NCBI GenBank assembly: GCA_038104845.1
Contig: JAYOBJ010000008.1
Coordinates: 7,788-71,787, forward strand
Source of the DNA: Methanobacteriota archaeon
GTDB lineage: Archaea; Thermoplasmatota; Poseidoniia; Poseidoniales; Poseidoniaceae
Length of the DNA: 64,000 bases
Reading direction: 5' to 3'
Shown here: positions 25,642 to 61,268 of the stretch, one piece after another
Layout of the letters: every line of letters starts with the position of its first letter
Position numbering within the stretch: position 1 is the stretch's first letter
The notes under the pieces: model-generated
Told to the model about the DNA's origin: nothing
The model's database searches: none
What the model saw: only the letters and a program-made list of their open reading frames with translations
Position numbers and translations under genes: made by a program

Positions 25642-25983
25642 ATGGAAGATGAGTTGGTGGTGGTGCTTGGCCAAGACCAAACAGCCGCTCGTCAACGCAT
25701 GTCACCCGTTCGCTTGGTTCGTGAAATTTGGCGGGAGATCACCTTTGGCGTGGGCACTTGGGGGGCCCTGCGCCCGTTGATCACGGCAATGTTGGCGCTG
25801 GTCCCCTTCCTGTTCCTGGGTCAACACTTCAACCGTGAGCACCGACGTGGAATCGAGTGGGGCTTGCTGCAAATCCCACTGGCCTTCACGATCGTGCTGT
25901 GGGTGGGGCTCTACGTGTGGTCCATTTTCGATGCGTGGAGGGACGCTGTCGCCTTCATGACCAGCCGTCAAGTCCAGAGCTGA
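25642..25983 (+). CDS. Small hypothetical membrane protein (two TM helices)
   Basis: GTG at 25624, first ATG at 25642. The helices are ALRPLITAMLALVPFLFLG and LLQIPLAFTIVLWVGLYVWSIF. Its 3' end overlaps the convergent metalloprotease gene by 16 nt. Confidence 0.5.
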   Translation: MEDELVVVLGQDQTAARQRMSPVRLVREIWREITFGVGTWGALRPLITAMLALVPFLFLGQHFNREHRRGIEWGLLQIPLAFTIVLWVGLYVWSIFDAWRDAVAFMTSRQVQS

Positions 25984-26756
25984 TCGCTCGCCACGACCGA
26001 ACCATCGGCGAGACCAGCGAGGTCGGCCAGGTCGTTTTCATCAAACTCATTGGGGAGGGAGGAAAAGAAAATGTTGGCCAAATCGGCCGAATTGACCGCC
26101 CAATACATCACAGAATCCTCGTTGCTCGAGTGGCCGGGATGATCATCGTCCTCGTGATCCACTGGCGATGTGTAGACCAGGTTCACCAGGCCAAGAAGGT
26201 GGCCCACCTCGTGAACAATCACGCTGTTTTCGACGTCTTCCACCGATGGTCGGCCGAACGGGCCGTCTGCATTCTGAATGGTGTCGCCGAACAGGGCCAC
26301 AGTGGAAGCATCGACCGCTACACCAAGCACCCCATCCTGGTCGTATTCACCTGCTGGGAAGATGAGTTGCCATCGCAACACGCCACCGTCTTGGACCTCG
26401 CCTGACTTGGCAGCCCACGCCTCGGTGCGGACGTCCGTATCGCTCCACGCACCATCATGATCAAAATTGACCGCTTCGAATTCAAGGGTGATTCCGTTGG
26501 GTTTGGCACACACCGATTCAAGGCGCTCAAGCAACATGTCGGTGCTGCTCGTGAGGGGTTTGTAGCCTGCTTCATAGTCGATCTCCACCACCATGGAGGT
26601 GAACCGGTCGTCCTGCAAGCATGCCAGTGTCAGCCCACCGGGGATTCCTTTTCGTTCAGGAACCAAATCGTCAACAGCGCCTCCAAGGCACCCTGCCATC
26701 GGTGCAAAAAACACCAGCAGGACGATGAGGAAGCCTCGCATCCACGCTGAGGGCAT
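25968..26756 (-). CDS. Zinc metalloprotease (HEXXH, metzincin-like), probable lipoprotein
   Basis: ORF 25968..26882 trimmed to ATG (complement of 26754-26756), giving MPSAWMRGFLIVLLVFFAPMAGC (lipobox-like M-A-G-C). The active site is VIVHEVGHLLGLVN..., with a possible Met-turn at EDSVMYW. Confidence 0.7.
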   Translation of the reverse strand: MPSAWMRGFLIVLLVFFAPMAGCLGGAVDDLVPERKGIPGGLTLACLQDDRFTSMVVEIDYEAGYKPLTSSTDMLLERLESVCAKPNGITLEFEAVNFDHDGAWSDTDVRTEAWAAKSGEVQDGGVLRWQLIFPAGEYDQDGVLGVAVDASTVALFGDTIQNADGPFGRPSVEDVENSVIVHEVGHLLGLVNLVYTSPVDHEDDDHPGHSSNEDSVMYWAVNSADLANIFFSSLPNEFDENDLADLAGLADGSVVASDQLWT

Positions 26757-26794
26757 GGCTCCGACCTGCCCTCCCTTGTTTTTCAACCCCGCCC

Positions 26795-27256
26795 TCACCA
26801 GTCCTCGGGAATGGCCAGCGGGGAAAACAGTTGACCGGGACCGTTGGCTTGGGCCAATTGTGTTCTGACCAAATGCTCCCATTGCCGAAGAGCGAGCACC
26901 GCATCGAGCACCGTCACATCGATCTCCACCAGCGTCACGCGAATCAACGTGTCCAGAATGTCCATTCGCTGGGTGTCAACAATGTCCATCACCTTTTCCA
27001 ACGCAAATTGGCTTGTGGATTCGCTGCGTTCAGCATCGAGCGGCCACGGAGCCGCTGCACGCTGCGGCAAGGGCTGACCCACCGATTGAGCGTGTTCCTC
27101 GAGGGTGTTCATGAGCGCGTTCAGATGCTTTTGCAGCACCAAGGCGACTTCCACCACCGGCATGGTCAGTTGATTGATGAGGTTCACCGTTCGCTCCTGA
27201 AGCGTCACGAGACCGGACGTATCGTCAGCGACCCCGGTCAAACGAGCCCACCTCAT
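26795..27256 (-). CDS. Hypothetical cytoplasmic helical protein translationally coupled to the upstream giant ORF
   Basis: ORF 26795..27316 trimmed to ATG (complement of 27254-27256). This ATG overlaps the TGA stop (27253-27255) of the 1,807-aa ORF as ATGA. There is no signal peptide or TM. Confidence 0.55.
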   Translation of the reverse strand: MRWARLTGVADDTSGLVTLQERTVNLINQLTMPVVEVALVLQKHLNALMNTLEEHAQSVGQPLPQRAAAPWPLDAERSESTSQFALEKVMDIVDTQRMDILDTLIRVTLVEIDVTVLDAVLALRQWEHLVRTQLAQANGPGQLFSPLAIPEDW

Positions 27257-30200
27257 TGCGAGCCAAGGGCGTCGATGTACTGCCAGCCGTAGGATGCCCA
27301 CTGTTCTTCCGTCCAACCATCAGGAAGACCGTTCGGCGGCAGGGGAGGGGGCTGCGAGCGATCGATGGCTGGCGCAGGGGGTTGAGCGTTCATGGGAGGC
27401 GGCGGGGGCGAGCCGGCAGCATCGGGTTGAATCGCGGTTGGAGCGATCGCTGGAACGGCTTTTTCCGCGGCCATCTGAGTCATCACGTCCTCCGTCTGGT
27501 CAAGCAACGCCTCTTCGGGAGGCGGTGCCAGCATTCGACGACGCATGACCAGTGCGTACATGCCGAAGGAGACCGACCCCAGGGCAATCAAGAACAGCGT
27601 CACGCTGAACAGGTCATCCGAGAGTTGTTGAGAAAGTGCCTCGCCGTCACGGACCGTGACCTCTTTCACGAGCAGAGAGGGAACCATCTTACGGTCCATT
27701 TCCACGCCGTCAACGAACACCACCACGCGATAAGCAAAGGAATCGCCAGGGTCACCGGATGCGGTGATGGACAAACCTGCTGCGATGGGTTGGCCTGCGA
27801 TGGCGTCAACCGATTGGTTCGCGTCGGTGGCCCAGAAACCGCTTTCTGTCAGCCGCTGAAGGGCAACCACCACTTGACCGTCGCCACCCAGGTTGTTGGC
27901 ACTCACCATCATGGTGGCCGTGGAACCGGCGTATGGACTCGGTGTGTCCCACGACAGCATCGTGGCCTCGTGCTGGAGGTCGATGTTGGGACCCGTCAAC
28001 GACAAGGGCCAAGAGGCGAAGGGCGTCATCATGGTGTTGTCTGCCGTATCGTACGGGTTGCCCGCTTCGTCCGAACCCGAAATCCACACGTCCACGGTGT
28101 AACTGGGCAGCAACGTCGTGGCGCCGGAGTCGGTCAGGTCGAGGACACCGCTCCAGAAGATTTCGGAACCGAAGGCCGTCACATCGGGGAGCAACACGCT
28201 TCCTCGGGAAATCTCCGATTCACCTGCCACCACCCGGTAATGGAGCACAGCGGGTTCGTCCAAATCAAACCCGTTTTCGTCCCGTGTCACCAAACGAACG
28301 TCGAGGTGCTCGGCTTGTCCAATGGGAAGCGGTTGTCCTGCGAGCACGCCGTTCAACGACATGCTATCGATCGTGGGGCGCTCGTTGTCAACAACCAAGC
28401 GCAGACGGGGTTGAATGTCGGATTCATCCAACGCCAGGCCTGGAAGGTCGTCCATGCTGAGTCGCAGATCAAGGCGCCCGGACCGCACGGCTGGCACCAA
28501 CAAATCCACCGAGAATTCACCATCCTCTCGGGTCGAGGTTCGCCAGTTGTTCTCGAAATCACCAAACACGACATCGAACGACCCAGGCGGCGCTGGTGTT
28601 TCCGTTTCGGAAAAGAGCACACGACCCGTGATGCGCAGGGCTTGGCCTGCCCCAATGATGGATTCGAAGTTTTCAGAGGTGTAGTGGTTGACCGAATTGC
28701 GAAGTTCTATGGCGCGAATGTGGCCTTGTTCAGTGTCAAAGCGGAAGTCGTTGTCAAGGCTCCAATGGTTGTCGCCGAGCCCTTCCTCGACCTCGAAACA
28801 AGGTTGGAGTTCACCTTCGTTGCATGGCATGTCGGTGACCTTGATCTTGGGGATGAACGTGCTTTCACCGTTGGTGTCGTACGTCTCCGGGAACATCCAT
28901 GTCAACTGGAATCGAGCTTGGATGATCACAACGCTGTCGTTGTTCGCATCCAGTTCAACCGTTGAATAGAGGTTGGAAACGGCGATGTTGTCGCTTCCGG
29001 ACGTCATCACGGCGCGTGGCTGACCATCGTCGTCGGCTGCAAGGGTAATGAACATTGACGATTCATCGTCATCAAAGTCGCCTCCCAAGGCGACCTGAAC
29101 CGCTTGGATGTCCCGCCACCCGTTGTAATCAGCAAGTTTCACCTGAACCGTGTAGGGGACACCGGGGTGAAGCGGTTCACCGTCGTCGTGACCGAGAATG
29201 GAGGAATTGCCGAGGTCAATGACCGGTTCGAATTCTTGACGGATGAAGTACGTTGACAGGTCGGCGTTCCAGTCGGGTGGTGTCTCACCGGGTCGGAAGC
29301 CACAGGCAACGGTGCTGGTGGGGCACACCGGGCCTCGACCCATGGCGATCTCGTTGTTCTGGCCGTCCTCTCCCGTCACGAAGAACGAAACGCGCTGTCG
29401 GTGGAGGAGCATGGAATCGTCGATGAGCCCTTCGAAAATGTTGAGCCCACCGGCCCGGGTTTCGGGAGAGGAGAGGGTCGTCATCTCGTACTCGTCTTCG
29501 TTGGGAAGTCCGTCGAAATTGTAGTCGTGGCAACCGATGGCCTCACTGGGATTGCAACCGACCCAGTAATGCAGGTTGATTTGACTCGGTGGGTCAACCG
29601 AGTCTTGAATCACGATGGAAAGCGGCTGGCCAGCACCTGCTGAACCGACATGGCGCTCCTCGCCGTCCCTAGGAGTGGCACTGAGAACGAGCGGGGAGTT
29701 GCCATCAAGGATGAGGCGGATGGTGTTGTAGTTGGGATTGGTGAAGGTTGAGCCGTTTTCCATGTTCACGGCTTGAACGTAGAACACCATACCACCCGGT
29801 GCTGATTCAATGGGTGATTGAACCGTGATGTTGAAATCACCAAAAGCAGGGTTGGCTTCCTGATACAACAACAACGGCTCGTCGATCGGGTCACCATCAA
29901 ACGTGACATTTTGGCCCAAAATTTGGAGGTCAAACGTCCCGGAGGGGGGCATGAGTTGAGAATCCTGGAAGTGCATGCTGCCGGTGAAACTCAAATTAAA
30001 ACCGCCTCGCACCCAATCCATCGGGTAGAGTTGGCGACCGGTTTCTTCCCAAACCCGGAGCCCGTCGAGTTGGATGTCGTTCTCGATGATCAAGTCCATG
30101 CCCTCCGTGTTCCAACGGTTCACGGCCACGCCAAGGTCGTCTTCCACGGAGATGATGGCTTCAGTATCGGTCTGGTCGTCCCAACTCCAGTTGACCTTGG

Positions 30201-32676
30201 TGGGCATCCAGATGGAGACCACACCTGCATTGTCCACCATCGAGGTGCAGTTTGCGGTGTCGAAGACCACGATGCCACCTGCGTCATCGATGAGACTGCA
30301 GGAATCGCCCCGCTCCCACGTGAATCCGGGGTCGACACCGTCGGTATGGCTGAGCATCACCGTGGCTTCCGTTACGTAGTCGACATCGTCACCGGGGGCG
30401 ACGCGTGCGATGAGGTTGCGGAAGATCCCGTCCGGTGCGGCCAACCCACCCTCAAATGCAGCGTCGATGGCTCGCGTTTGCATGGCGTAGGTGATGTCAA
30501 TGTTGGAGAGTTTGACGCGCCCAGAACTCGCTGCCTTGATCGCCAACGGGACGTTCACCACACCGTCACCGTTGTCCGGCACGAACGCATTGAACGCATC
30601 GACGAGGGTCGGCGCTCGTTTGACGATGACTCCGACTTCAGAGTCGTCGGTGGCCACCACGCTGGATTCGTTCAGGAAGATCTCGGATTCCCAGTCGTAG
30701 GTCCCGTCTGCACCAACGTCAATCATGGGACGGTCGGGGTACCCTTCCTCGTACTCAAGCACGAAACGATCCACGGTGGGTGTGAGGGTCGGGCTTGTGC
30801 TGGTCATGAGGATGGAATACCGCAAGGTGTTGCCGGCAGCTTCAGTGGAAAAGCTGGTTTCCATCTGATTCTGGGCCTCAAGCCAGGTTGTGCCGTTGTC
30901 GTTGGAAACCATCACTTGCATGGTGGTGCCTGCGGGCACATCGGACGTCCATGTGGGACGAACCTTCCCCACCTTGGTACCGGTGTTGAAATGCGGCGAA
31001 GTCCAGTCGCCACTGGCCGTGTAGGCCGAGGCATGTTCGATGTCCACCCACCAGGACACGGCGGTCGACCCGATGAGTTGGGCCTTCCACACCAGTTCGT
31101 TGCCCGGGAACGCAAAGTGAATGGTCGTGTTGGACGTGACTTGCTCCCAATGGGTGCCGTTATCAGCGGACACCCAGTAGTCCACACGGTCACCAATGGA
31201 CGCTGCTGACCAGTAGGTTTCGACGTTGGCAGCAACGATGTCGTCATCCGTGACCAACACGTCCCCGTACCATGTGGTGGTGCCTGGAGCAGGGGTGGTC
31301 TGGTATTGCCATCCGGTCCCGAACTCTCGGTAATACAGGGTGGTGCCTGACCACGTTGAGTAGCCAGCATCCACCGTGATGAAGCGTTGACCGTCGTACT
31401 GGAGGCCGTAGCCCAAGCGAGAGATCTGCCGAGTCGTGGTTTCAGGGATCAGGGCTTGCGAAGATCCGGAAACCGACCATGCCTCAAGGCTGTCCCGGTC
31501 GTTGTAGTAGTAATCCTTCTGACAGCGCATGTAGAATGTCGAGCCGTTGACTTCCAATCCTCGCAACATTTGTCGGCTGCCGCCGGGATCGGAACCCCCG
31601 CAGTACCACGATGAACCCGATGAGGATGTGTACGTGAAGAAGTCCGTGCTCCGGGTGTAACTGCCGGTGCCATCGCTGGCGAAATCATAGGCATACAACC
31701 GGTTCATGTTGTTGTGGGCAATCCACACTTGATCGGTGGTGCGGTCGTAAGCGATGCCGGTGTATTCGCCAACGGAGGGTGACACATCGTACGAGTCAAT
31801 GCACGTCCACACGTCGTCTCGAGAAACATCCATTTCCATCACACGGTGGTACTGGGTTGGTGCCGAGGAACCGTAGCTGTAGCGGTAACCCGAAAGGATG
31901 CCAAAGAGGCGTTCATCGTCCGTGACCGTCCAGTCCCGGAATCCATAGTAGGCGTAGTAGGAGGAAGAGTGCTTCTGAGGCAGGGTGCATTCGGCTTGGT
32001 CGAGCGTAATGATGGATTCTCGCGTGGCGTTGTTGGGGTACAGTCGGTGAACAACGTTGTGGAAGGAGGACGACGACCAGGTTGAGAGGAACAACCAATC
32101 GTGATGCTTGAGGATGGCACCCTGCGCCTGAGCATTGAAACTGTTTGACGACTTGGTCAATTGCTGAGAAAAGAGGGTCTCGGTGGCGTTGGAGGTGTGC
32201 GGCTGCCGAAGGGCGTAGGAGCCGTTGTCGAGCCACGCGTCCGAGTTAGGGTCGATGTAAGCGTCTTGGCCGTGGGGCAAAAACAGATCACTTGTGCTGT
32301 CCAGCGCGAGGGTCAAGTCACCGCTGCGGTCGTCTGTTCCGCTCGCTTCGCCCGCAACCCAATGCGAGCGGTCATCGGTCACGAGTTGGGACCATCCTGT
32401 CGCAGACGCTCCGGACAGCGTGAGGCTCACATCGGTGATCTCAGCGCCTCGGGGCAGCGAAACTTGCGCCCCTGCATCGGGGTTGGCGCCCTGATAGAGC
32501 GCGATGTATTCGACAGAACCGTCGTGAAATTCGTAGACGTGTCGGGTTCCTGCCGCAGCGTCGGCAGGGGCCATGAGGTTGTCCACCATGGGCGACATGG
32601 GGAGCAGCACCATCAAAGCGACCATGAGAAACAACACGGTCTTTGAAGAACCGCCATGCTGACCGCTACCGAGCAT
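27253..32676 (-). CDS. Giant surface protein (1,807 aa): signal peptide, ectodomain with two Asp-box (BNR) motifs, C-terminal TM and Pro-rich cytoplasmic tail
   Basis: ORF 27253..32814 trimmed to ATG (complement of 32674-32676), giving MLGSGQHGGSSKTVLFLMVALMVLLPMSPM. Asp-boxes are SADNGTHW (~31147-31170) and SNDNGTTW (~30883-30906). The TM is LFSVTLFLIALGSVSFGMYALV followed by MRRR. The tail is ...GSPPPPPMNAQPPAPAIDRSQPPPLPPNGLPDGWTEEQWASYGWQYIDALGSQ. Confidence 0.85.
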   Translation of the reverse strand: MLGSGQHGGSSKTVLFLMVALMVLLPMSPMVDNLMAPADAAAGTRHVYEFHDGSVEYIALYQGANPDAGAQVSLPRGAEITDVSLTLSGASATGWSQLVTDDRSHWVAGEASGTDDRSGDLTLALDSTSDLFLPHGQDAYIDPNSDAWLDNGSYALRQPHTSNATETLFSQQLTKSSNSFNAQAQGAILKHHDWLFLSTWSSSSFHNVVHRLYPNNATRESIITLDQAECTLPQKHSSSYYAYYGFRDWTVTDDERLFGILSGYRYSYGSSAPTQYHRVMEMDVSRDDVWTCIDSYDVSPSVGEYTGIAYDRTTDQVWIAHNNMNRLYAYDFASDGTGSYTRSTDFFTYTSSSGSSWYCGGSDPGGSRQMLRGLEVNGSTFYMRCQKDYYYNDRDSLEAWSVSGSSQALIPETTTRQISRLGYGLQYDGQRFITVDAGYSTWSGTTLYYREFGTGWQYQTTPAPGTTTWYGDVLVTDDDIVAANVETYWSAASIGDRVDYWVSADNGTHWEQVTSNTTIHFAFPGNELVWKAQLIGSTAVSWWVDIEHASAYTASGDWTSPHFNTGTKVGKVRPTWTSDVPAGTTMQVMVSNDNGTTWLEAQNQMETSFSTEAAGNTLRYSILMTSTSPTLTPTVDRFVLEYEEGYPDRPMIDVGADGTYDWESEIFLNESSVVATDDSEVGVIVKRAPTLVDAFNAFVPDNGDGVVNVPLAIKAASSGRVKLSNIDITYAMQTRAIDAAFEGGLAAPDGIFRNLIARVAPGDDVDYVTEATVMLSHTDGVDPGFTWERGDSCSLIDDAGGIVVFDTANCTSMVDNAGVVSIWMPTKVNWSWDDQTDTEAIISVEDDLGVAVNRWNTEGMDLIIENDIQLDGLRVWEETGRQLYPMDWVRGGFNLSFTGSMHFQDSQLMPPSGTFDLQILGQNVTFDGDPIDEPLLLYQEANPAFGDFNITVQSPIESAPGGMVFYVQAVNMENGSTFTNPNYNTIRLILDGNSPLVLSATPRDGEERHVGSAGAGQPLSIVIQDSVDPPSQINLHYWVGCNPSEAIGCHDYNFDGLPNEDEYEMTTLSSPETRAGGLNIFEGLIDDSMLLHRQRVSFFVTGEDGQNNEIAMGRGPVCPTSTVACGFRPGETPPDWNADLSTYFIRQEFEPVIDLGNSSILGHDDGEPLHPGVPYTVQVKLADYNGWRDIQAVQVALGGDFDDDESSMFITLAADDDGQPRAVMTSGSDNIAVSNLYSTVELDANNDSVVIIQARFQLTWMFPETYDTNGESTFIPKIKVTDMPCNEGELQPCFEVEEGLGDNHWSLDNDFRFDTEQGHIRAIELRNSVNHYTSENFESIIGAGQALRITGRVLFSETETPAPPGSFDVVFGDFENNWRTSTREDGEFSVDLLVPAVRSGRLDLRLSMDDLPGLALDESDIQPRLRLVVDNERPTIDSMSLNGVLAGQPLPIGQAEHLDVRLVTRDENGFDLDEPAVLHYRVVAGESEISRGSVLLPDVTAFGSEIFWSGVLDLTDSGATTLLPSYTVDVWISGSDEAGNPYDTADNTMMTPFASWPLSLTGPNIDLQHEATMLSWDTPSPYAGSTATMMVSANNLGGDGQVVVALQRLTESGFWATDANQSVDAIAGQPIAAGLSITASGDPGDSFAYRVVVFVDGVEMDRKMVPSLLVKEVTVRDGEALSQQLSDDLFSVTLFLIALGSVSFGMYALVMRRRMLAPPPEEALLDQTEDVMTQMAAEKAVPAIAPTAIQPDAAGSPPPPPMNAQPPAPAIDRSQPPPLPPNGLPDGWTEEQWASYGWQYIDALGSQ

Positions 32677-32746
32677 GATGGTGCCACGGTCAACATAGAC
32701 TTTGAACCATGCGGTCCAAGTGTCCCTGTTCAGGGTGGCCCAACCG

Positions 32747-38503: not shown

Positions 38504-38511
38504 GCAGTGGA

Positions 38512-38517: not shown

Positions 38518-38688
38518 AAAGCGAGCATCTCGCCCTTTGTGACTCGGAATGAACGCTTAAGAGGCTGATGGAACATTGTTCATACATCGTTGGTGTTCGC
38601 TGGCGCCAACAACGGCGCAAAAGCACGGTTTTCGAACGGCATGGGCGGTGTGTTCAAGTCCTTCCCGCGCTGGTTCGCGCTTGTTCCC

Positions 38689-39564
38689 ATGACGCTCACC
38701 ATCACGCACCTTGGCACGGGAAGTCGTGGCAACGCCACGCTTCTCTCAACGCCCAAGGTCAACGTGCTCGTCGACCAGGGTTTCAGCGGCGTTCAGTTGC
38801 AGAAGCGCTTGAAGATGATGGGGCTTGAACCCGACGACATCGATTGCGTTCTCATCACACATCACCATGGCGACCATGGAGGCGGGGCCACCGTGGCCCA
38901 AAACAAATGGGGCATCCCCGTTTTGGCCAACGAACGAACCTCCCTTGAACTCGGTTTGAACCCCGAGCTGACGACCTTCTTTGATGCGCTGGATTTGATT
39001 CGCATCGGGGACGACCTCAGCGTCCTGCCGGTCCCGGTGCCCCACGACGGCTCGGACAACGTCGCTTTTGTCGCCAGCCACAACGGCGAGAGGGTGGCGA
39101 TCATCACCGACCTCGGCACCTTCACCGACGAATTGGTGCGGCATGTCCGTGGATGCGAACACATCGCCGTGGAGGCCAACTACGACGAGCGACGCTTGCT
39201 CAACGGCCCCTACCCGCGCTCCCTCAAGGACCGCATCTCCGGTCCAGGCGGCCACCTCTCCAACGATCAAACGGGCCAGTTTTTGGCCAGGGTGTGCACG
39301 CCAGCTACACGAAGCATCACGCTGACCCACTTGAGTCAAAAAAACAACGAACCCCACATTGCAGAGGCGACGGTGCTGTACTACATCGAAGAGGTCTTCA
39401 CCGGCGACCTGTGCATCTCAACCCAAGACGGTCCAGAATTTTCCCACTACATCGGCCGCGACACCGACTCAACAGACCTCTCCGCACCCCACACAGCAAT
39501 CGACCCCACCGCCGACTCGGAAGGTCAAGGCCTAAATGCGACCATCAGGTGTGACGAATCGTGA
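38689..39564 (+). CDS. Metallo-beta-lactamase fold hydrolase (PhnP/YycJ-like, COG1235-type)
   Basis: ORF 38590..39564 trimmed to ATG 38689, giving MTLTITHLGTGSRGNATLL. Motifs are VLITHHHGDHGGG (HxHxDH) and the distal GGHLSN. Its stop TGA (39562-39564) overlaps the next gene's ATG (39564). Confidence 0.8.
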   Translation: MTLTITHLGTGSRGNATLLSTPKVNVLVDQGFSGVQLQKRLKMMGLEPDDIDCVLITHHHGDHGGGATVAQNKWGIPVLANERTSLELGLNPELTTFFDALDLIRIGDDLSVLPVPVPHDGSDNVAFVASHNGERVAIITDLGTFTDELVRHVRGCEHIAVEANYDERRLLNGPYPRSLKDRISGPGGHLSNDQTGQFLARVCTPATRSITLTHLSQKNNEPHIAEATVLYYIEEVFTGDLCISTQDGPEFSHYIGRDTDSTDLSAPHTAIDPTADSEGQGLNATIRCDES

Positions 39565-39692
39565 TGCGCCGAGGGCCTGCGTCCGGACGTCGACGGCTCC
39601 AAGCCGACGAACGTGCCGTGAGCGAGGTCCTCGGCGTGGTGATGTTGTTGGCCATGGTCATCACCATCATGGGAGGGGTGTGGGTGTTCCTC
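39564..39692 (+). other. Class III (prepilin-type) signal peptide, pilin-like protein 1
   Basis: RRRLQADERA / VSEVLGVVMLLAMVITIMGGVWVFL. Confidence 0.7.
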
Positions 39693-50303: not shown

Positions 50304-50311
50304 AATATAAG
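50304..50311 (-). promoter_or_regulatory. Candidate TATA box for the beta-helix surface protein gene
   Basis: This lies in the only clearly AT-richer intergenic stretch of the island (50272-50435). The minus strand reads CTTATATT about 36 nt upstream of ATG 50271, compatible with an archaeal TATA at about -26 and a short leader. Confidence 0.3.
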
Positions 50312-50435
50312 ACTGCGCCCTCGTTGGCGGAATGAGAATATCAAATCTACGAGATAGTATCAGCCATAACAGGCAGAAAAAGGACATTCGCAACCAGCAC
50401 TGGACCTCCATTTCCCGCCAAACATCGCCGCAGAA

Positions 50436-54700: not shown

Positions 54701-57071
54701 GGGTCACATCGATGCCGTCGGGCATGGCCGTGAGCTCCATCAACGACAGATCGTCGGTCAACGACAAATTGACGGCGATGTTCTCCACAGGGTCGATGTT
54801 CAAGCGCTCTTCAGTGACGCTGAGGTCCCACGAACCATCGGGCAACAAGAAGAAGAACTCACCGTTTGCATCGGCTTCGGTTCGCCACTCATAGCCGTCA
54901 CCCGTGGCGACCACAACGGGCGCCTCCCAGCGAGGCAGCGAGCTGTCCCACCGGGTGGAATTGTCATAGAGGTAAATCACACCATTGACCGCAGTCAAGG
55001 GTTCGAGGAAGATGTTACCGAGGTCCACACTGGTGCCGGTGACCACTTCAACAAGGGACCCGTATCCAACGTTGCCTTGTATGCTGCTGGTGGTCATGTC
55101 GTAGTCGAATCCTGACGGTAGACGAACGGAGAAGTGGCCCGTCACGTTGGTGGTTGCTTCGAACTCCAGGTCGCCGGTTTGGAAATGCACCTCCAAACCA
55201 GAGGCGGCATCGGTGGATTCTAACTTGTTCTCTTCGGGGGTGTTGTCCACCCACGTGAGGTATTCTTCAGCAGAGCCGGGGAACACACGGAAACTGCCGT
55301 TGATGTATGCCGCCTGTGAATAGGTCACATCCTTAGCCAATTCGTCCATGTCCATGTCGAGCTCCAATTGATCGAACAGAACAAATTCGGGGTTGATGTC
55401 ATCGCTGATGTCCCACGTGCCGTAGAACAATTCAGCATAGACCACCCCGTTTTCGTCAGAAGTCGCATTCACCGGTTCAAGCACACCCAAGGTGTTGGCG
55501 AAGGTGATCACACGTCCGGACACGTCAAACAGGGGCTCCATGGTGTTGTCATCAACGGGCGAGATAAGCTGCAGCGTCACGTCCACGGTCGTTGGCACAC
55601 CGGAGGTCAGCGTGATGTTGGTGGTGTCATCGATGACACTCACGGACTCGTTCAGGTCGTACCAACCGTCGTTGTCAAGGTCCACGCGGTAGTAGTAATC
55701 GCCTTTGGCCACGGGGCCGTAGGAGAACGTTGCGTTTTCATCGGTCATGATGGTCACGACCTCGCCCTCGCCAAGGTCCACGTCAACCAATTGAATCGTT
55801 GTGTTTCGGAGCAGATCCCCGTCAAGTGTCGTCAAGGTATCAGCGAAAATGGCCCCGGGCATGTTCATGGCCAAATCGTAGGATGGCGTCACACCGATTT
55901 CCACCGGGTCAGGGAGCAGGACTTCCTTCCCGTTGGCAAGTTGAGCAATCATGTTGTACGTCCCGGGCAAGAGACCCGTTTTGTAGAACGAACCGGGTTC
56001 GACCATCGGACCCGAGAAGGACCCAACACCGATGAACAGGCCAGTTCCGTTGAAGGTGCCAGTGCCAGCAAAGCTGCCTGCACCTTCGATGGTCTCACCG
56101 GTGCCGGCTTCAGCGTCGCCATAGGTTCGCGTTAGTGTTGTCGTGCCTTCGGAGGTGAAGGTGCCGGATGCATTGACTGTTCCTTGGAGGAGGTATTGGG
56201 GCACATCGCTGCTGTCGTCGACCAAACAGACCGTTTCGTTGCCCGGCATGACCGGGTTGGAATCGTTGTCAGCGTCGCAACCAACGGGCGACCCTTCAAT
56301 CCACGAAGCGTCAATGGTGCCGTAACCGGTCCACGTGCCGTTGGCGAAGAAGGTCCGGCCGTCGCCGATGTCTCGGGTGTAGGTGCCGATGAAATTCTGT
56401 GCCACGGCGATGCCCTCACTCTCGAAGGTACCGTTTTCCACGAAGTTCGCCTCGCCAGTGCCTTGGAGGATGCGGCTTTCATCACTGGTGAAGGACCCGC
56501 TGGTGGTTTCCACGGTGTAGTTGTCCGTCATCGACCAAATGTTGCGCAAAATGAACGTCGTTTCAGCGATGGGGTCGCCGTTGAACGATTCGTCACCGCT
56601 CCAGGTCACGGTACCGGAAACGCCCGAACTCTTGACGGCGACATCAAGGGTCTGCGTCAAATCGGTCAAACGGTTGGCCTCGTCACCGGTCACGTTCATT
56701 TCAGCCTCACCCAACCAGCTCATGTTGGCGACTTGACCGAGAATGGCTGTGATTTGGTTGACCTCACGATCGTCGTTCGTGGGCTCAAGGATGTCACCCA
56801 AGCGTTCTGCATACGAACCGTCACGGATTTGGTCACGGGCCGCGGCGGGGTCGTAATCGCCTGCATACGCCGAGACTCGGATTCGACCGGCGGGAGCGAT
56901 GAACGAGTAGTGGCCGGTTTCGTCGGTGTCGGTGAACCCGATTGGAATCCAATATGTGTCATCGTCCAAGTCCGTCTCACCTTCGCCCGAGAAGGCGTCT
57001 CGCTCAACGAGGAGGCGGACGCCAGACAGACCTTGGCCGTTGTCGGCGAGGGTAACTTGGCCGCTCATTTC
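51717..57071 (-). other. C-terminal extension of AglB: repeated beta-sandwich modules, CARDB/NEW3-like modules and a terminal TM
   Basis: It begins after ...NTLVKILKYYPGAE. Module signatures are TDETGHYSFIAPAGRIRVSAY, DENATFSYGPVAKGDYYYRV, TNVTGHFSVRLPSGFDYDMT, ADANGEFFFLLPDGSWDLSV, SDENGSFAAYVPAGDWLVVV, TDENGNTTEMMMPGNWSFTL and TDSEGVWRLFVPIRDAYNVTV. Later come VDITNEGNGRDTFTSYLVEEAIPEGWSI and VPVRNTGLLDAPSVFVYL. The end is SPWLTVVIALLVALVVYGGVKTSRSRGGSRF. Confidence 0.6.
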
Positions 57072-60000
57072 AGCCCCTGGGTAATACTTCAGGATCTTGA
57101 CCAGCGTGTTGGTTTGTGGAATGCCCATGTTGGCGTCTTCGCTGTACCAGTTGGCGATGACGAAGTGGTTCATCATGGCACCGGGCAGCGGAAGGGCCTG
57201 GGACAAGATGCTCCCGGGTGAGCCGGACTGGCCAAAGTGCTGCGATGGTTGCGGGTTGGAGGCGCTCGTTGACACACCGAGGGTCGATGCACCGTAGCCC
57301 ACGTAGGTGCGGGCCACCATGGTGTCAAAGAACGCAGGGTTGTGATCAACCCGGACGTCCTCAATGAGCAACGGATCGATGTCAGCACCGGCTTGTTGGT
57401 TGAGGATGTCCTGTGCCATGGCCTCGTCGACTTCCTCACGGGTCATTTCGTCTTGGAATTCACCACGAACCGTTTCGTACACTTCGTCCATGTACGTCGC
57501 AATGTCCTGACCGGAAAGGATGGTGGGCGCACCGAAAATGCCCATGGGCTGGCCACGGTTGTAGTTGGCATCCGCCGTGTAGCGGCCAGCACGTGGGTAG
57601 AGACGGTCATCGATGGCGAAGTACCGAATCTCTTGATTCCGCTCGATCGTATCACCGGGCATTCCGTGGTAGTCCTGAACATCGTATTGATCAAGTTGAA
57701 TCAAATCGTTGTAGAGATCGTGGATGGTGGCGTCTGGGTTGGCTTCGAACGCTTTTGTCAACAGTTGCGTGACCATGGCCAGACGTGCATTGGTCCGGTG
57801 GATGCTTGTTGAAACCGAATTGTATTCCTCGAGCAAATCGGCAGTGTACCAGTAGTCGCCGAAAATGGTGTAGGATGCACCCTCAACGGTGTCGGCACCG
57901 GTGCGGATGTTGTTTTGGAAGGTGCTGTTGGCGTCGACGATGGACGTGAATTCGTCGCCCAAGCACGACGTGGACAAGTCATCCGTGCACGGCAATTGCT
58001 GTCCATCCTTGTAAATGCGGTATATCGTCTGCGACGTGTCAAACAAACCGCCCGTATCGGGGTGACCTTCGGCCATCACAACATCACGGTTGATCTTGAC
58101 AACTTGGAACGAACGGTCTTTGATGTAATCAACCATCCCTTCGTCGAACGTTGTCTGCATCGTTACAAATTCGTCCACTTGCTGTTCAGTGAGGTGGTTG
58201 CCAAGCACGCCAAGGAATGCAGGCGTGAATCGCAACGAATCGGCGTTTTGCGACGCAAACACACGGTCGCCGTCGGAGAGACGCCAGACCCACATGGCCG
58301 TCAAGTCCTCCTGTGACCGGGCCATGAGCATGTTTCCAGCAGAAGGAATACCGGATTGGAAGTTGTCCGAAACCGAGGGATGCTGACCGGTGTTGAGGGC
58401 TTGGAACCCGTAGTCCCACCACGACACGAAGGCGGGTCGATCGGAGTATGACTCATCCGTGTCTTGGTCCGCCAGCCATTTGTATGCTGTGTTCCACCCG
58501 TTGTCGTTGAATGAGGAACCGAAGCTGCCGAGGTACCATCGACCGTCGTAGGTGCTGCTGTCGAGCACGGAGAAACCCAAGGCGTTGTAGCGAAGAATGT
58601 CCGGGATGATGTTGTAGATCTGTTCGTCAATCTCACCCTCTTGGTTGGATGTACCTGGAATGGCAGAATCCAACCCGTAGGTGGCTTGCTGACCGAACAG
58701 CATGATCATCACAAGGAACACGGCGGAAAACTGTGGCGTACGCCAGACGGCTTTCCGAGCGCCCGAAATACGGTCGGCCGGCGTGCGGATGCCAAATTTC
58801 TTCCACGAACGGACCAGGCTGTTCCAATCGGCCCACCGCCAGAACGACATGATCCCGGCGGCACCGAGAACGGCCATGATGGGGGTGGCGTTGAACATGA
58901 AACGTGCAGCGTTCCAGGACATGAACGTCGCCACAAACACCCAGACACCGAAGACAAGGGAAGTGGAGGCGCGACTTCGCAGCCCTTTCCAAAGGAGGCC
59001 TGCGCCCATGATGAGAGCGAGCAGGAACGTGATCGGTCCAAACGACGCAAACAACTGTGCACGGTTGGGTGCGTTGGCTTCTGCAACGGTCCCGAAGATC
59101 TTGGTCTTGGCGAAGTAACCACTGCCCGAGAACAAGATGTCCCATCCGTACCAGATGTTGAAAAATTGTAGAACATAGAGAACCACGAAAAACACGATGG
59201 CCACGGTGCCCAACGTACCGAGGACCAGCAGCCAGGGCTTGTCTCGGAAACCGGTCGTCACGAAAGCGATAACGACGCTAAAGACCGCGATGAACAGGAA
59301 GGGCTGCAGGCCGGTGGGGTCAAGGACCAAGTTCAGCGTCGGGTGAGCGTAGAACGGAAGCCCCATCAGGAAGATCACGGCGAGCATCGTCAGGAACATC
59401 ACGCTGATGGCCGTGGAATCACGGCGTCGGAACATGTTGAGTGCCACCTGAAGGGCGTAAGCCAGGAACAGAATGGCGGGCCCGACAACGAACCCTTTCC
59501 AACCGAGCGAAGCGATCCCGAAGGAAACACCAGCGAGCACGGCGTTCGAGAGCGCATACGGTCGTGCTTGAGCAACGTCACGATAGGCGGCCATGAAGGA
59601 CGCCGGGTGAGGCGAGGTCACGCGGCTGATGCGAGCGGTGCCAGCGTAGCGGACGGCGCGCATCCAGAACATGAAGCCCAGCGAAATGAACAGCATCACG
59701 AAGGCGTCGTGGTCCGCCAAGGCCCAGGTTGAGTGAGTGACGTGAGCGGGCATGAAGGCGATGAGCCAAGCGGCGAGCACAGCGGCGCCCTTGCCGAACT
59801 GGTCGTTGGCCATGGCAGCGATGGGGAACACCGTCAGGGCACCGTAGATGGCGGGAAGGGCCAGCATGCTGAACCAGACAGCATCGGCCGGGTTGGCGAG
59901 GAAGGGCTTCAGCAGCATAGCACCAACGGCCATCGACCACGAAAACAGAGGGGGTCGGGGATTGATACCGCCCACGGGATAGTTTCGGTCGGCATCAACG

Positions 60001-61268
60001 AGGAGGTGCGCGTTGTTGGCCAAGATGTAGTCGACCACCCGCTTCATGTACCAAGGGTCAGAACCGCCGGTCATGTCCCAGTTACCGGTGCCAAAGGCGT
60101 TCATGGACGGCACGGCGTACCACTGAATGCGGACGGCCAAACCGATCAGGAAGGCTGCGGCAATCATCATGCCTGCACCATGGGTTCGCAGGAACATACG
60201 AGCGTTGGAAGGCTCGTGCTCACCGCGATTAGCCCAGCCACCGTAACGCTCGTGGTTACCGATGTAATAAATGGCGACACCGATGAAGAAGGTGAAACCA
60301 AACCACAGCCAGGGGGCCAGCGAGGTGTCAAGGTTTTCGTTGTACCAGATGCCACGCTCAAACCAAGACGACACTTGATAGAGCATCCACATCGACCCGG
60401 TGAGCATAGCACGGGTGTACCACCGCTCAGCGACCATGCCGGCGATGATCAGGGCTACCACACCGGTCAGGAAGGCGTTCCAATAGCCAACGTATCCGTG
60501 GTAGCCATCAACGGTCGTGATGCCAAGTTGGTCCATCACGTCAACGCTGTGGAAGTGCCAGAGTGAACCGCCAAAGGTGAGCACCCACACGCCGAGGGCC
60601 ACCATCAGTGGCAGAGCGTTGCGGTTGAACCCTTCTTCATGGCCAAGGAAGGAAAACCAACCGGCATCGCCAGCGGGGTTGAGCACCCCACGGGCCATCA
60701 CACCGGCCAGAACACCGGCCACAGTGGTGGCGGTCCACCACGCAAAGAAGGTGTAGGCCACGGCCTGACGCTGAAGGTTGAGCGTCGAGACCTCTTGCCC
60801 ACTGGGCATGAAGTAGGTCGTGGGGAGGGTCGCAAGGGCATCCGATGCAGCGGCGAGTGACACCCAAAAACCAACGCCCGAAAAGACGACCATGGTCTGC
60901 CATTCGTAGCGCTCGTTGAGGTTCAGCAGTGAGCCGAACAGGAACACCACGGCAAACAGCAGGGCTGCTACGGCGTCGTCGAGCGCCAAATGAATGGCCT
61001 CAGCACCGAGGAAACCGACCAAGAGCACACCGAGGGAAACGGAAGAAGGTGCGAGGTTGGGCTGGCTCGTTCGGAGCATGCGGGGCACGTAGCTCAGGGC
61101 CCCGGCGACGCCCGTGATCAGCAGGGGCGTCATGTTGTTCACCGTCAGGTCGTAGTCCAGACCCGTAATCTTCGCAGCGGCAATCGCCAGCAACACGGCA
61201 AGGGGGGCCAACAGCCACCCCATGGTTTGCCGAGAGGCGGATGCCTTCGTTTCAGCATGTTCGTTCAT
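51717..61268 (-). CDS. aglB: Oligosaccharyltransferase AglB/STT3 with extra N-terminal multi-TM block and ~1,780-aa C-terminal beta-sandwich ectodomain (3,183 aa)
   Basis: One uninterrupted ORF, with TTG at 61286 and ATG at 61268 preceded by GAGGG 7 nt upstream. WWDYG is encoded at 58407-58421. First-loop-type motifs are GSDPWYMKRVVDY and LADHDAF. At least 7 CarboxypepD_reg-like modules and CARDB/NEW3-like modules follow the normal AglB periplasmic domain. A terminal TM is followed by KTSRSRGGSRF. Confidence 0.9.
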   Translation of the reverse strand: MNEHAETKASASRQTMGWLLAPLAVLLAIAAAKITGLDYDLTVNNMTPLLITGVAGALSYVPRMLRTSQPNLAPSSVSLGVLLVGFLGAEAIHLALDDAVAALLFAVVFLFGSLLNLNERYEWQTMVVFSGVGFWVSLAAASDALATLPTTYFMPSGQEVSTLNLQRQAVAYTFFAWWTATTVAGVLAGVMARGVLNPAGDAGWFSFLGHEEGFNRNALPLMVALGVWVLTFGGSLWHFHSVDVMDQLGITTVDGYHGYVGYWNAFLTGVVALIIAGMVAERWYTRAMLTGSMWMLYQVSSWFERGIWYNENLDTSLAPWLWFGFTFFIGVAIYYIGNHERYGGWANRGEHEPSNARMFLRTHGAGMMIAAAFLIGLAVRIQWYAVPSMNAFGTGNWDMTGGSDPWYMKRVVDYILANNAHLLVDADRNYPVGGINPRPPLFSWSMAVGAMLLKPFLANPADAVWFSMLALPAIYGALTVFPIAAMANDQFGKGAAVLAAWLIAFMPAHVTHSTWALADHDAFVMLFISLGFMFWMRAVRYAGTARISRVTSPHPASFMAAYRDVAQARPYALSNAVLAGVSFGIASLGWKGFVVGPAILFLAYALQVALNMFRRRDSTAISVMFLTMLAVIFLMGLPFYAHPTLNLVLDPTGLQPFLFIAVFSVVIAFVTTGFRDKPWLLVLGTLGTVAIVFFVVLYVLQFFNIWYGWDILFSGSGYFAKTKIFGTVAEANAPNRAQLFASFGPITFLLALIMGAGLLWKGLRSRASTSLVFGVWVFVATFMSWNAARFMFNATPIMAVLGAAGIMSFWRWADWNSLVRSWKKFGIRTPADRISGARKAVWRTPQFSAVFLVMIMLFGQQATYGLDSAIPGTSNQEGEIDEQIYNIIPDILRYNALGFSVLDSSTYDGRWYLGSFGSSFNDNGWNTAYKWLADQDTDESYSDRPAFVSWWDYGFQALNTGQHPSVSDNFQSGIPSAGNMLMARSQEDLTAMWVWRLSDGDRVFASQNADSLRFTPAFLGVLGNHLTEQQVDEFVTMQTTFDEGMVDYIKDRSFQVVKINRDVVMAEGHPDTGGLFDTSQTIYRIYKDGQQLPCTDDLSTSCLGDEFTSIVDANSTFQNNIRTGADTVEGASYTIFGDYWYTADLLEEYNSVSTSIHRTNARLAMVTQLLTKAFEANPDATIHDLYNDLIQLDQYDVQDYHGMPGDTIERNQEIRYFAIDDRLYPRAGRYTADANYNRGQPMGIFGAPTILSGQDIATYMDEVYETVRGEFQDEMTREEVDEAMAQDILNQQAGADIDPLLIEDVRVDHNPAFFDTMVARTYVGYGASTLGVSTSASNPQPSQHFGQSGSPGSILSQALPLPGAMMNHFVIANWYSEDANMGIPQTNTLVKILKYYPGAEMSGQVTLADNGQGLSGVRLLVERDAFSGEGETDLDDDTYWIPIGFTDTDETGHYSFIAPAGRIRVSAYAGDYDPAAARDQIRDGSYAERLGDILEPTNDDREVNQITAILGQVANMSWLGEAEMNVTGDEANRLTDLTQTLDVAVKSSGVSGTVTWSGDESFNGDPIAETTFILRNIWSMTDNYTVETTSGSFTSDESRILQGTGEANFVENGTFESEGIAVAQNFIGTYTRDIGDGRTFFANGTWTGYGTIDASWIEGSPVGCDADNDSNPVMPGNETVCLVDDSSDVPQYLLQGTVNASGTFTSEGTTTLTRTYGDAEAGTGETIEGAGSFAGTGTFNGTGLFIGVGSFSGPMVEPGSFYKTGLLPGTYNMIAQLANGKEVLLPDPVEIGVTPSYDLAMNMPGAIFADTLTTLDGDLLRNTTIQLVDVDLGEGEVVTIMTDENATFSYGPVAKGDYYYRVDLDNDGWYDLNESVSVIDDTTNITLTSGVPTTVDVTLQLISPVDDNTMEPLFDVSGRVITFANTLGVLEPVNATSDENGVVYAELFYGTWDISDDINPEFVLFDQLELDMDMDELAKDVTYSQAAYINGSFRVFPGSAEEYLTWVDNTPEENKLESTDAASGLEVHFQTGDLEFEATTNVTGHFSVRLPSGFDYDMTTSSIQGNVGYGSLVEVVTGTSVDLGNIFLEPLTAVNGVIYLYDNSTRWDSSLPRWEAPVVVATGDGYEWRTEADANGEFFFLLPDGSWDLSVTEERLNIDPVENIAVNLSLTDDLSLMELTAMPDGIDVTLNVFLNSAEDQSYENGTKVSPDFTLEPSDSNRDALHFDADDYDSAGNVTVNLTPGTYNLVFNRTAAGDENATDYDLVGEIAFEQIYIGLDGPEEPLSVPLRHTYRVTGTLVNSTDEGIANQFLLYNEADDQWFNIGSDENGSFAAYVPAGDWLVVVAPFMNDEVTETLRAPLTVTEDAAGRTDLTFQTVAAVDVSIHLMEGLTDADLSDMSVTAVSHDGYGNITFERTDENGNTTEMMMPGNWSFTLNRTVGTKHWFMDTSHAPVTVAGSDNNTFDAGDLIADLEVQIGGKVFWDLDEDDVPDSTEGIPEFNVTVLGNNNTDVNETVMTDSEGVWRLFVPIRDAYNVTVVKEGFATVHYEEANATGFVVYDSPDSRDIEVNAGSVDVMGTVTDQIDAARLDGASIVLYPVSGVERDPVTVTGAMNGSTLEWSALIQPGEWVVVVTEANPGPNGGGTAYALLDATVANGGNVSMVMALGGYVSLETLWLDIEQNEHHAGSNDAGAALLNVPVEIEVSYDNMAWMMAVPANGSLEQLFPEGTISYDSEFSTTQHSTSLTMEYYGGQTVSVLADTTINSVLEYNRRVNSDLVLDMDASSVTGASVEDEDDRHLLASVSSSNDSMFNIITVNVDVTYNGTETMDIFTVTGEMGLAQDSDDWSVAILNTSSGEYEDSVDIGLGVGSDDVQASLTATVTVQITLPDVEDAWHLEDSHRVTVRLQTELGEASTVQVKVEVPQTYGFDLTQESDTVGMGALVERQFSVDITNEGNGRDTFTSYLVEEAIPEGWSITPLESTLVLAKDETRSQTFTAFAPEDFTEGEFTLTVYVDSEGSGTTKEATVTIQSARITLVVDQNDIITASDQYTNEEGAVRVPVRNTGLLDAPSVFVYLTDEATGEEMQVNINVPAEGETVAVFEGITKEQAGNARYHVRIDVQGQEADFVDSISEGGEFDFQIEYNPRTTADGDSPWLTVVIALLVALVVYGGVKTSRSRGGSRF
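58407..58421 (-). other. WWDYG catalytic signature of STT3/AglB
   Basis: The plus strand reads cccgtagtcccacca; its reverse complement TGG TGG GAC TAC GGG encodes WWDYG, in the context RPAFVSWWDYGFQALNTGQHPSVSDNFQSG. Confidence 0.9.
60195..61268 (-). other. N-terminal extension of AglB: ~360 aa with about 9-10 hydrophobic helices preceding the canonical STT3 first TM and loop
   Basis: Helices seen by eye include WLLAPLAVLLAIAAA, VSLGVLLVGFLGAEAI, AVAALLFAVVFLFGSLL, TMVVFSGVGFWVSLAAA, AYTFFAWWTATTVAGVLAGV, LPLMVALGVWVLTFGG, AFLTGVVALIIAGMV and PWLWFGFTFFIGVAIYYI. The boundary is approximate. Confidence 0.55.

Follow-up and report, generated by a model that had tools for sequence, protein, structure and literature searches.

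Does a dense cluster of giant surface-protein genes in a planktonic archaeon mark a variable island acquired for attachment, or a fixed part of the cell envelope? The question is raised by a 64,000-nt stretch of a Poseidoniaceae archaeon genome (Marine Group II, subgroup a; contig JAYOBJ010000008.1), here called the window, in which twelve genes at positions 25968-61268 form an array of about 35 kb that includes four giants, one of them the oligosaccharyltransferase AglB. No member of Marine Group II, the most abundant group of planktonic archaea in the surface ocean, has ever been cultured (PMC6461757), and in the literature searched nothing was found on the cell-envelope make-up of these archaea or on an array of this kind. 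The initial annotation had taken the region for an island of co-localized adhesion, glycosylation and proteolysis genes serving a particle- or cell-attached lifestyle. Our analysis favors, at a probability of about 0.62, a vertically inherited core cell-envelope locus of the Poseidoniaceae that lies among housekeeping genes and comprises at least four transcription units. The interpretation shifts from accessory adhesion island to core envelope locus, and of all the features of this locus the giant AglB is the most notable. The genes of the array are listed here.

25968-26756, minus strand: HExxH zinc-protease-like lipoprotein (the metzincin of the initial annotation)
26795-27256, minus strand: small protein of 153 aa, whose start overlaps the stop codon of the Asp giant (ATGA)
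27253-32676, minus strand: giant of 1,807 aa first labeled Asp-box (here the Asp giant)
32747-38503, minus strand: TSP3 giant of 1,918 aa
38689-39564, plus strand: metallo-beta-lactamase (MBL) hydrolase
39561-40622, plus strand: pil1, pilin-like
40619-42850, plus strand: pil2, pilin-like, 743 aa
42847-43326, plus strand: pil3, pilin-like
43328-45847, minus strand: STAND protein of 839 aa, 20 nt downstream of the beta-helix gene
45868-50271, minus strand: beta-helix giant of 1,467 aa
50436-51659, minus strand: subtilase (S8), 57 nt downstream of aglB
51717-61268, minus strand: giant AglB of 3,183 aa

The coordinates confirmed the twelve genes, their sizes, the gaps of 57, 164, 20, 70 and 38 nt and the 4-nt overlaps first reported, and the gaps of 57, 164 and 20 nt were seen again in independent gene calls on related contigs. 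Together the four giants amount to 8,375 aa (25.1 kb), and the only window proteins of more than 1,400 aa are these four, all inside the array. A Kyte-Doolittle hydropathy scan, from which all topology calls in this work derive, identified a signal, anchor or transmembrane (TM) segment in 9 of the 12 array products compared with 5 of the 17 other open reading frames (ORFs) in the window (Fisher p = 0.025). The array was upheld as a dense grouping in which extracytoplasmic giants lie together with an oligosaccharyltransferase and two proteases, nine of the twelve products being extracytoplasmic by these calls. STT3, Peptidase_S8, Beta_helix, TPR_12, Lactamase_B and CarboxypepD_reg were matched above the Pfam cut-offs; AAA_16 (32.4 versus 32.6 bits), DUF7289/Pilin_N, Peptidase_M10 and TSP3_bac fell below them.

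Gene order, selection and transcription units

Window proteins were compared by tBLASTN with 80 one-per-species loci, each spanning the STAND gene with 10 kb on either side. These are the best 80 of 504 STAND-matching stretches in a one-genome-per-species collection, and all 80 are Poseidoniaceae-like; 43 metagenome loci were retrieved via the Asp giant. Synteny counts rest on the loci long enough to show gene order. In every informative locus of the 80, the aglB, S8, beta-helix and STAND genes read in one direction and were followed by pil3, pil2, pil1 and MBL in the other and then by the TSP3 gene in the first, with the same orientation as in the window and almost the same spacing. Across the 43 metagenome loci the order was likewise fixed, with pil2, pil1 and MBL opposed to the TSP3, Asp, small-protein and protease genes, and the flanking genes past the protease (pcp-NUDIX fusion, GT2, DnaJ and others) were the same as in the window. 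The array was present in every related genome examined, and the nearest relatives of AglB, the STAND protein and the Asp giant belonged to Candidatus Poseidoniales, Poseidonia or Poseidoniaceae metagenome-assembled genomes (MAGs).

The flanks of the array in the window are occupied by housekeeping genes (GAPDH, PheRS-beta, RNase HII, GluRS, DnaJ and purD). No tRNA genes or Rfam families were found in scans across the window, no mobility genes (integrase or transposase domains) were identified among the window ORFs scanned, and GC content was 0.56-0.60 in the array versus 0.60-0.63 in the flanks. Because gene order is fixed both inside and outside the array, no tRNA or mobility gene accompanies it and the GC shift is slight, the region is a core chromosomal segment rather than a hypervariable or acquired island. 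The island proposed at first does not survive this comparison: the genes lie adjacent in the same order and orientation in all informative loci of the 80 and the 43, and the flanks are equally syntenic. On the closest contigs (L087, L089 and L117), protein identity was 97-99% from pil1 to the metalloprotease and 86-97% for the flanking genes. Exact-sequence look-ups of the S8 and purD products gave no entry, and the genome of the window seems to be missing from the index used. At greater distance, the order purD, aglB, S8, beta-helix was kept where AglB was only 47-57% identical, and purD (window 61403-62728) remained adjacent or close to aglB even at 33-36% AglB identity, often with carS upstream (L002, L130, L131, L132 and L133). 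purD is the deepest conserved neighbor of aglB, deeper than any link between aglB and a surface gene.

Selection on the array was estimated by the Nei-Gojobori method against relatives of about 90% identity. The ratio of nonsynonymous to synonymous substitution (dN/dS) was 0.03-0.06 for every array gene and 0.085 for the AglB tail, the fastest-evolving part, whose identity of 55-60% fell to 34% and whose dN/dS is roughly double that of the other parts. Compared with Poseidonia genomes, identity was 70-75% for the TSP3, Asp and beta-helix giants and about 75% for the STAND protein; in a comparison where the giants were 73-75% identical, flanking genes were 44-54% identical (pcp-NUDIX, 44%; the 734-aa ORF at 18559, 45%). 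In the two families tested, full-length relatives were of near-constant size (AglB, 3,146-3,228 aa; Asp giant, 1,773-1,856 aa), varying by about 2-5%. Self-BLASTP identified no internal repeats in any giant, and the idea of repeat-built adhesins was dropped. The giant ORFs were intact in many independent assemblies; split AglBs occurred only in long-read, polished assemblies or on one other contig, with pieces that still span the whole protein. Given the intact ORFs and the purifying selection, the giants show no sign of frameshift decay, a concern voiced in the initial annotation. Presence in every related genome examined, strong purifying selection and giants without internal repeats are the traits of core structural genes and do not fit an accessory adhesion module of a particle-attached lifestyle. 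A housekeeping role also fits better than an attachment-specific one because many coastal populations are mostly free-living, as were the North Sea Marine Group II populations in one study (PMC6864105).

Three transcription blocks had been proposed from gene spacing. A sigma-70 promoter scan was set aside as not meaningful for an archaeon, and orthologous intergenic regions were aligned instead, which identified the following elements.

50305-50318, minus strand: putative beta-helix/STAND promoter element GCGCAGTnTTATAT, about 35 nt before the start codon, in the 164-nt gap
50337-50361, minus strand: two TGATAYT direct repeats about 20 nt apart, upstream of GCGCAGTnTTATAT
38555-38587: box in the divergent MBL/TSP3 spacer with the palindrome GAACAnnGTTC at 38571-38581
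38645-38669: second MBL/TSP3 box, GCGGTGTGTTCAAGTCC

The TATA-like element and the repeat block were invariant in a nine-genome alignment and unique in the window. Of 70 one-per-species loci, 57 have the exact TATA element ahead of the beta-helix gene, and it occurred nowhere else in the 2.96 Mb scanned; the TGATAYT repeat pair was also present in 57 of the 70. Matches to the TGATAY repeat pair elsewhere were all scattered inside coding sequence, and the motif is not common to the other array promoters. Some loci carried three or more TGATAYT copies (L048, L060 and L074-L082). Operon-like spacing inside the blocks was borne out, the TATA-like element noted in the 164-nt gap proved to be conserved, and blocks two and three were retained; block one, by contrast, appears to be two units, since a near-invariant promoter in the 164-nt gap separates aglB-S8 from beta-helix-STAND. 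The array is thus predicted to hold at least four units: aglB-S8, beta-helix-STAND, MBL with the three pilin-like genes, and TSP3-Asp-small protein-metalloprotease. Both MBL/TSP3 boxes were invariant in the nine-genome alignment, with indels in the surrounding spacer, and a TGAACA core is common to the two; the alignment of this spacer also fixes the MBL start at 38689. As the boxes differ from the beta-helix promoter repeats, their sequence suggests that a different regulator acts on the MBL/TSP3 spacer.

The giant AglB and its possible acceptors

The largest of the giants is AglB itself, with the STT3 domain at about residues 400-780 and the remainder as extension. Its parts were assigned as follows.

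60189-61268, minus strand: residues 1-360, extra N-terminal helical membrane bundle
58119-60188, minus strand: residues ~361-1050, STT3/AglB catalytic core
51810-58118, minus strand: residues ~1051-3153, sequon-rich extracellular beta-sandwich tail
51720-51809, minus strand: C-terminal TM segment with basic end

The STT3 domain (PF02516; residues 403-782) scored 41.6 bits against a cut-off of 24.5. Alignment to Archaeoglobus fulgidus AglB (3WAJ) recovered GGsDPWY (with the external loop 1 Asp), DHD, TvAE and WWDYG, the TIXE/SVSE-type motif of external loop 5 reading TVAE. Residues D404, D519-H520-D521 and E730 were invariant in 23 relatives. The GGsDPWY and laDHD motifs line up with the residues numbered D47 and D161/H163 in the A. 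fulgidus enzyme. An AglB_core-like Pfam match was weak (E = 0.0078), and no DK/MI motif could be located by eye downstream of WWDYG, where the predicted local distance difference test (pLDDT) score of the model is below 50. For an AlphaFold2 (AF2) model of residues 1-1100, the 17 best Foldseek matches were AglB, STT3 (yeast and human) or PglB, all with probability 1.0. In this model, residues ~46-340 form, at fair confidence, some eight additional helices that precede the canonical first TM segment. By motif and model, the protein carries the four core catalytic motifs and is predicted to have the fold of an active oligosaccharyltransferase. The fourth residue of its WWDXG motif is Tyr (window ~58400), as in A. 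fulgidus AglB-L; Tyr is typical at this position of TACK/Asgard AglB and eukaryotic Stt3, whereas Euryarchaeota vary there (PMC11407970).

Beyond the core, the protein matched CarboxypepD_reg-like and CARDB beta-sandwich domains (Pfam) in the tail, and more than 13 TM segments were called, the last at the very end and followed by KTSRSRGGSRF. The STT3 domain, the GGsDPWY, DHD, TvAE and WWDYG motifs and the predicted fold are thus shared with A. fulgidus AglB-L (PDB 3WAJ, 3WAK and 7E9S). That enzyme is 875 aa in length, whereas the window protein of 3,183 aa adds an N-terminal bundle of about 350 aa and some eight helices, a sequon-rich beta-sandwich tail (about 2,100 aa) and a second, C-terminal membrane anchor. 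The fusion of this extracellular tail to an AglB core is an unusual feature that the initial annotation had not pointed out.

Homologues were searched for with the first 1,250 aa of AglB, and 1.84 billion cluster representatives were scanned with its catalytic core using HMMER. Two classes were distinguished: enzymes of at least 47% identity and 3,146-3,228 aa with the N-terminal extension, and enzymes of 28-38% identity, mostly 2,040-2,775 aa, without it. Most of the best 150 AglB representatives in the HMMER scan exceeded 2,000 aa, and each of the 27 giant AglBs checked has a TM segment and then a basic stretch at its C terminus. Judged by these sequences, the giant architecture is widespread in databases. 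No paper describing it was found in the literature searched, and a 2024 review of AglB motifs (PMC11407970) does not include it; a core fused to a membrane-tethered, sequon-rich tail of 1,400-2,200 aa is apparently an undescribed oligosaccharyltransferase architecture. On a contig of a distant lineage (L130, 9282-10483), two genes come after that of a 2,185-aa AglB; one encodes a CARDB protein and the other a 73-aa thioredoxin that matches OST3_OST6 weakly. This thioredoxin could be an archaeal counterpart of a eukaryotic oligosaccharyltransferase accessory subunit.

The tail of the window AglB carries 42 sequons against 20.2 expected (z = 5.5). Tails were sequon-enriched in 24 of the 27 giant AglBs checked (z, 2 to 14), the other three having z of 2.1, 0.7 and 2.3, and the catalytic parts of ten Poseidoniales-type enzymes were not enriched. 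The TSP3 giant was also enriched in the window and in ten orthologues (z, 2.9-4.8); the pilin-like proteins and the STAND protein were about neutral. Because its tail is sequon-enriched, AglB appears to be fused to its own substrate and probably glycosylates itself. If this is true, it changes the picture of archaeal oligosaccharyltransferases, and the tail offers concrete targets for glycoproteomics and cryo-tomography of enriched samples. In one Marine Group II MAG, the genes with high transcription included one for an oligosaccharyltransferase (Damashek et al. 2021, PMC9723583).

Other array proteins and the conserved tail motifs

The subtilase matched Peptidase_S8 (PF00082) at 124.6 bits with the triad motifs DTG, HGT and GTS readable, and an N-terminal signal-anchor TM segment was called at residues 56-74. 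Its nearest NCBIfam model, below cut-off, is mycosin, which is membrane-anchored, and its gene adjoins aglB in all related loci. At the opposite end of the array, the lipoprotein has a signal and a lipobox-like (S/A)GC, the latter nearly invariant in 11 sequences, with QGC and VGC in two orthologues. The pattern HE(V)GHLLGLVN...DHE...GHS...SVMYW is conserved in the 11 sequences, SVMYW being a candidate Met-turn. The third His of HEvGHLLGLVN is off the canonical position and the Pfam M10 match (E = 1.5e-3) is below cut-off, so that the metzincin label was not retained and the protein is better called, from its sequence, HExxH zinc-protease-like.

The TSP3 label holds by motif count. The giant has 11 strict DxDxDGxxDxxE and 16 relaxed calcium-binding motifs, and TSP3_bac matched in four stretches at 18 bits against a cut-off of 25. 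A signal peptide and no TM segment were detected; the protein is very acidic (12.4% Asp), and its identity across Poseidonia genomes is mostly about 70-75%. Like Myxococcus CglD and MtsD, it is a large secreted protein with tandem TSP3 calcium-binding motifs. Unlike them, it has no lipoprotein signal and its center, flanked by the first two TSP3 motifs, belongs to no annotated family; the similarity is partial and at repeat level only (30 bits versus cut-offs of 400-800).

The label of the Asp giant is weak, with two Asp-box motifs (residues 503 and 591) and a Pfam BNR match of E = 0.9, and no Pfam or NCBIfam family matched the protein. The 181 clusters found for it contain Poseidoniales-type sequences only; the full-length ones listed are about 1,770-1,860 aa, and those named are called hypothetical. 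A signal peptide, C-terminal TM segment and cytoplasmic tail (27256-27546) indicate type I topology. In an AF2 model of residues 40-1190 (pLDDT, 72.9) the fold was all-beta, and Foldseek returned generic propeller or immunoglobulin-like (Ig-like) strings (mastigoneme, alpha-2-macroglobulin and adhesin extenders) at low TM-scores. The model is consistent with an extended surface protein, and no more specific function can be assigned. The beta-helix giant, with Pfam Beta_helix and Big_7 matches, is likewise predicted to be type I (signal peptide, TM segment at 1368-1386 and cytoplasmic tail at 45871-46113). The small 153-aa protein matched no Pfam or NCBIfam family and is conserved in all informative metagenome loci.

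The MBL hydrolase matched Pfam Lactamase_B_2 and, in precomputed gene calls, Anti-Pycsar_Apyc1. Its gene is joined to pil1, pil2 and pil3 by 4-nt overlaps, in the same order in all loci. The pilin-like proteins are below the Pfam cut-offs (Pilin_N, 19.4 versus 25.2 bits; DUF7289, 25.1 versus 27). In pil1 and pil2 conservation starts right after a ..ER(A/G)/VS.. class III cleavage-like site and runs into a hydrophobic helix; the class III-like N terminus of pil3 was judged by eye only. The charged N terminus, cleavage-like site, hydrophobic helix and translational coupling of three genes resemble archaeal type IV pilins and pilin-like systems (Pilin_N/DUF7289; Sulfolobus bindosome-type). The trio differs from these in its sub-threshold matches, in one member of 743 aa, in the MBL-fold hydrolase that heads the operon and in the lack of an ATPase, platform protein or prepilin peptidase nearby among the ORFs scanned.

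The STAND protein matched TPR_12 (72.5 bits), AAA_16 at the score given above and HTH_Crp_2, with an N-terminal winged helix-turn-helix (wHTH) and readable Walker A (GIAGIGKTT) and Walker B (VVDDF) motifs. The relatives listed are 66-92% identical, the full-length ones among them measuring about 839-844 aa, and the TPR part is nearest to AfsR in NCBIfam, below cut-off. A DNA-binding domain, P-loop NTPase and TPR sensor are combined as in AfsR/SARP-type and MalT STAND regulators, and JGI annotators named relatives of the protein MalT/MarR-like. In contrast to AfsR/SARP, its wHTH is Crp/MarR-like and not of the OmpR-type found in SARP, and all matches are below the family cut-offs.

The cytoplasmic tails of the beta-helix and Asp giants are each 80-100 aa. 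The tail end of the Asp giant, PPLPPxGLPxGWTxEQWxxYGWQYI, is near-invariant. The beta-helix tail segments EDPYAWAKAKQ and QHPGWLWD...NQWVPDPNY showed minor substitutions only in 16 orthologues, although whole-protein identity goes down to 49%. The C terminus of the small protein, GPGQLFSPLxIPEDW (26798-26842), is also near-invariant and ends in a free IPEDW-COOH. A free C-terminal Trp-acidic peptide is a ligand type often bound by TPR domains. The strong conservation of these motifs implies a cytoplasmic partner, for which the neighboring STAND TPR protein is an obvious candidate. The STAND TPR sensor might read the Trp-acidic motifs (GWTxEQW..YGWQY, PGWLWD..NQWVPDPNY and IPEDW-COOH), and its wHTH could then act on the TGATAYT repeats upstream of its own operon. 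Taken jointly, however, an outside-in coat signaling system together with a self-glycosylating AglB whose membrane-tethered, glycan-covered tail is a major envelope element seems unlikely. An ending of the form (L)PDGWTEEQWxxYGxQY is common to the Asp giant and three unrelated membrane proteins on other metagenome contigs (L127 3347-3781, L128 8839-8925 and L129 671-748, in ORFs of up to 1,252, 1,140 and 291 aa, respectively), and from its distribution the GWTEEQW-type ending appears to behave as a portable tail module. Judged by eye only, DDWMAKFNPTP, which lies in the cytoplasmic tail of another window protein with a signal or TM segment (ORF of up to 847 aa, 7221-9764), is similar to the beta-helix tail motif EDPYAWAKAKQTP.

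As a core envelope locus, the array could work as follows. The giants would be exported via Sec to make up the standing coat of the cell surface, and the main acceptors of AglB would be its own tail and the TSP3 giant, a calcium-binding protein. Surface proteins may be matured or trimmed by the membrane-anchored subtilase and by the HExxH lipoprotein. Transcriptional control by the wHTH-NTPase-TPR protein would extend at least to its own operon. A class III signal peptidase encoded at another locus would process the three pilin-like proteins, which would form a short surface assembly. The four conserved giants, two proteases, three pilin-like proteins and dedicated regulator make up a family-wide list of envelope candidates, and in metagenomic-island mapping the region is not expected to behave as an island.

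Alternative explanations and related loci

Several observations weigh against a coordinated envelope locus. The topology calls come from a hydropathy scan only, a crude means of prediction, and confidence in the AglB model is modest (pLDDT, 63). No pilus ATPase, platform protein or prepilin peptidase was found among the ORFs scanned in the 64-kb window. The initial view that aglB is linked to its substrates is borne out in part only. Sequon enrichment was seen in the tail of AglB and in the TSP3 giant; it was never seen in the beta-helix giant next to aglB (z, 0.0 to -2.3), and the Asp giant was not clearly enriched (z, -0.9 to 1.8). The deepest aglB neighbor, purD, encodes no surface protein. 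One distant lineage has genes for a CARDB protein and a thioredoxin-like protein after its giant AglB gene, instead of those for S8 and the beta-helix giant. Synteny is as strong in the housekeeping flanks as in the array, so that conserved order is weak evidence that the units work together, and a functional coupling of the four units is tentative. The synteny of the flanks, the neighbors of aglB (purD at the greatest depth, and neither S8 nor a beta-helix giant in the distant lineage), further proteins with a signal or TM segment among the housekeeping genes of the window, and the different conserved elements at the beta-helix/STAND and MBL/TSP3 promoters could reflect chance adjacency, that is, independent surface genes on a chromosome whose order is frozen family-wide, with no module beyond short operons. 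Such an origin is possible, if doubtful: it leaves aside the excess of extracytoplasmic products in the array (9/12 against 5/17, p = 0.025), the confinement to these 35 kb of all four window proteins above 1,400 aa, and the persistence of aglB, S8 and beta-helix together at 47-57% AglB identity.

An accessory, variable attachment island is improbable. Poseidoniales widely carry "thrombospondin" genes that have been linked to adhesion (Rinke et al. 2018, PMC6461757), and the array does hold adhesin-like domains (TSP3 repeats, beta-helix and Ig-like strings), a GC content slightly below that of its flanks and an AglB tail that evolves about twice as fast as the rest by dN/dS, down to 34% identity. 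Yet gene content and order are invariant in all informative loci of the 80 and the 43, the giants are non-repetitive, under strong purifying selection and near-constant in length where tested, the window lacks tRNA genes and its scanned ORFs lack mobility genes, and the array occurs in every related genome examined even though the North Sea Marine Group II were mostly free-living (PMC6864105). That the STAND, MBL and subtilase genes form an antiviral defense system (Avs-like or similar) among the surface genes is more improbable still. PADLOC matches were weak: STAND to PDC-S73 (E = 3e-6), MBL to RTasMBL and LmuA (about 1e-5) and S8 to a subtilase model (E = 1.6e-25). MBL also matched Pfam Anti-Pycsar_Apyc1; these matches, however, cover generic domains only. 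Unlike patchy defense genes, STAND has a fixed place, identities of 66-92% and about 500 one-per-species relatives, and its effector domain, a wHTH, is neither a nuclease nor a protease.

Comparison with other archaeal surface loci further distinguishes the Poseidoniaceae envelope locus. In the Haloferax volcanii agl cluster, aglB lies beside glycan-assembly genes. Both regions place an oligosaccharyltransferase gene in a cell-surface-related neighborhood; unlike in Haloferax, the window aglB lies between purD and the subtilase gene, the likely acceptor is fused to the enzyme, and the only glycosyltransferase seen (GT2, 22907-23938) is outside the array. A cluster of cell-wall-associated glycoprotein genes in an abundant planktonic archaeon is also represented by the island of Haloquadratum walsbyi; that island is reported to exist in several different versions in one natural population, with seven novel ones recovered (PMC4535781). 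In contrast to the island as described there, the window array is fixed in content and order family-wide and is under strong purifying selection.

Three minor observations concern the records and the surrounding sequence. The entire archaeal array also stands on a contig filed under a "Verrucomicrobiales bacterium" MAG (L013; NZEQ01000036.1), where the STAND protein has 76% identity to its window counterpart; the public record almost certainly contains a binning error here. At window 24521-25606, a pyroglutamyl peptidase (C15) is fused to a NUDIX hydrolase; the position is conserved, and the fusion diverges fast, with 34-51% identity where the giants have about 60-75%. Against the near-identical population L087, dS varied about ten-fold along window 16698-43326, from 0.05-0.06 in pil1 and the TSP3 gene to 0.17 in the Asp giant and 0.50 in dnaJ, which hints at recombination or a local sweep.

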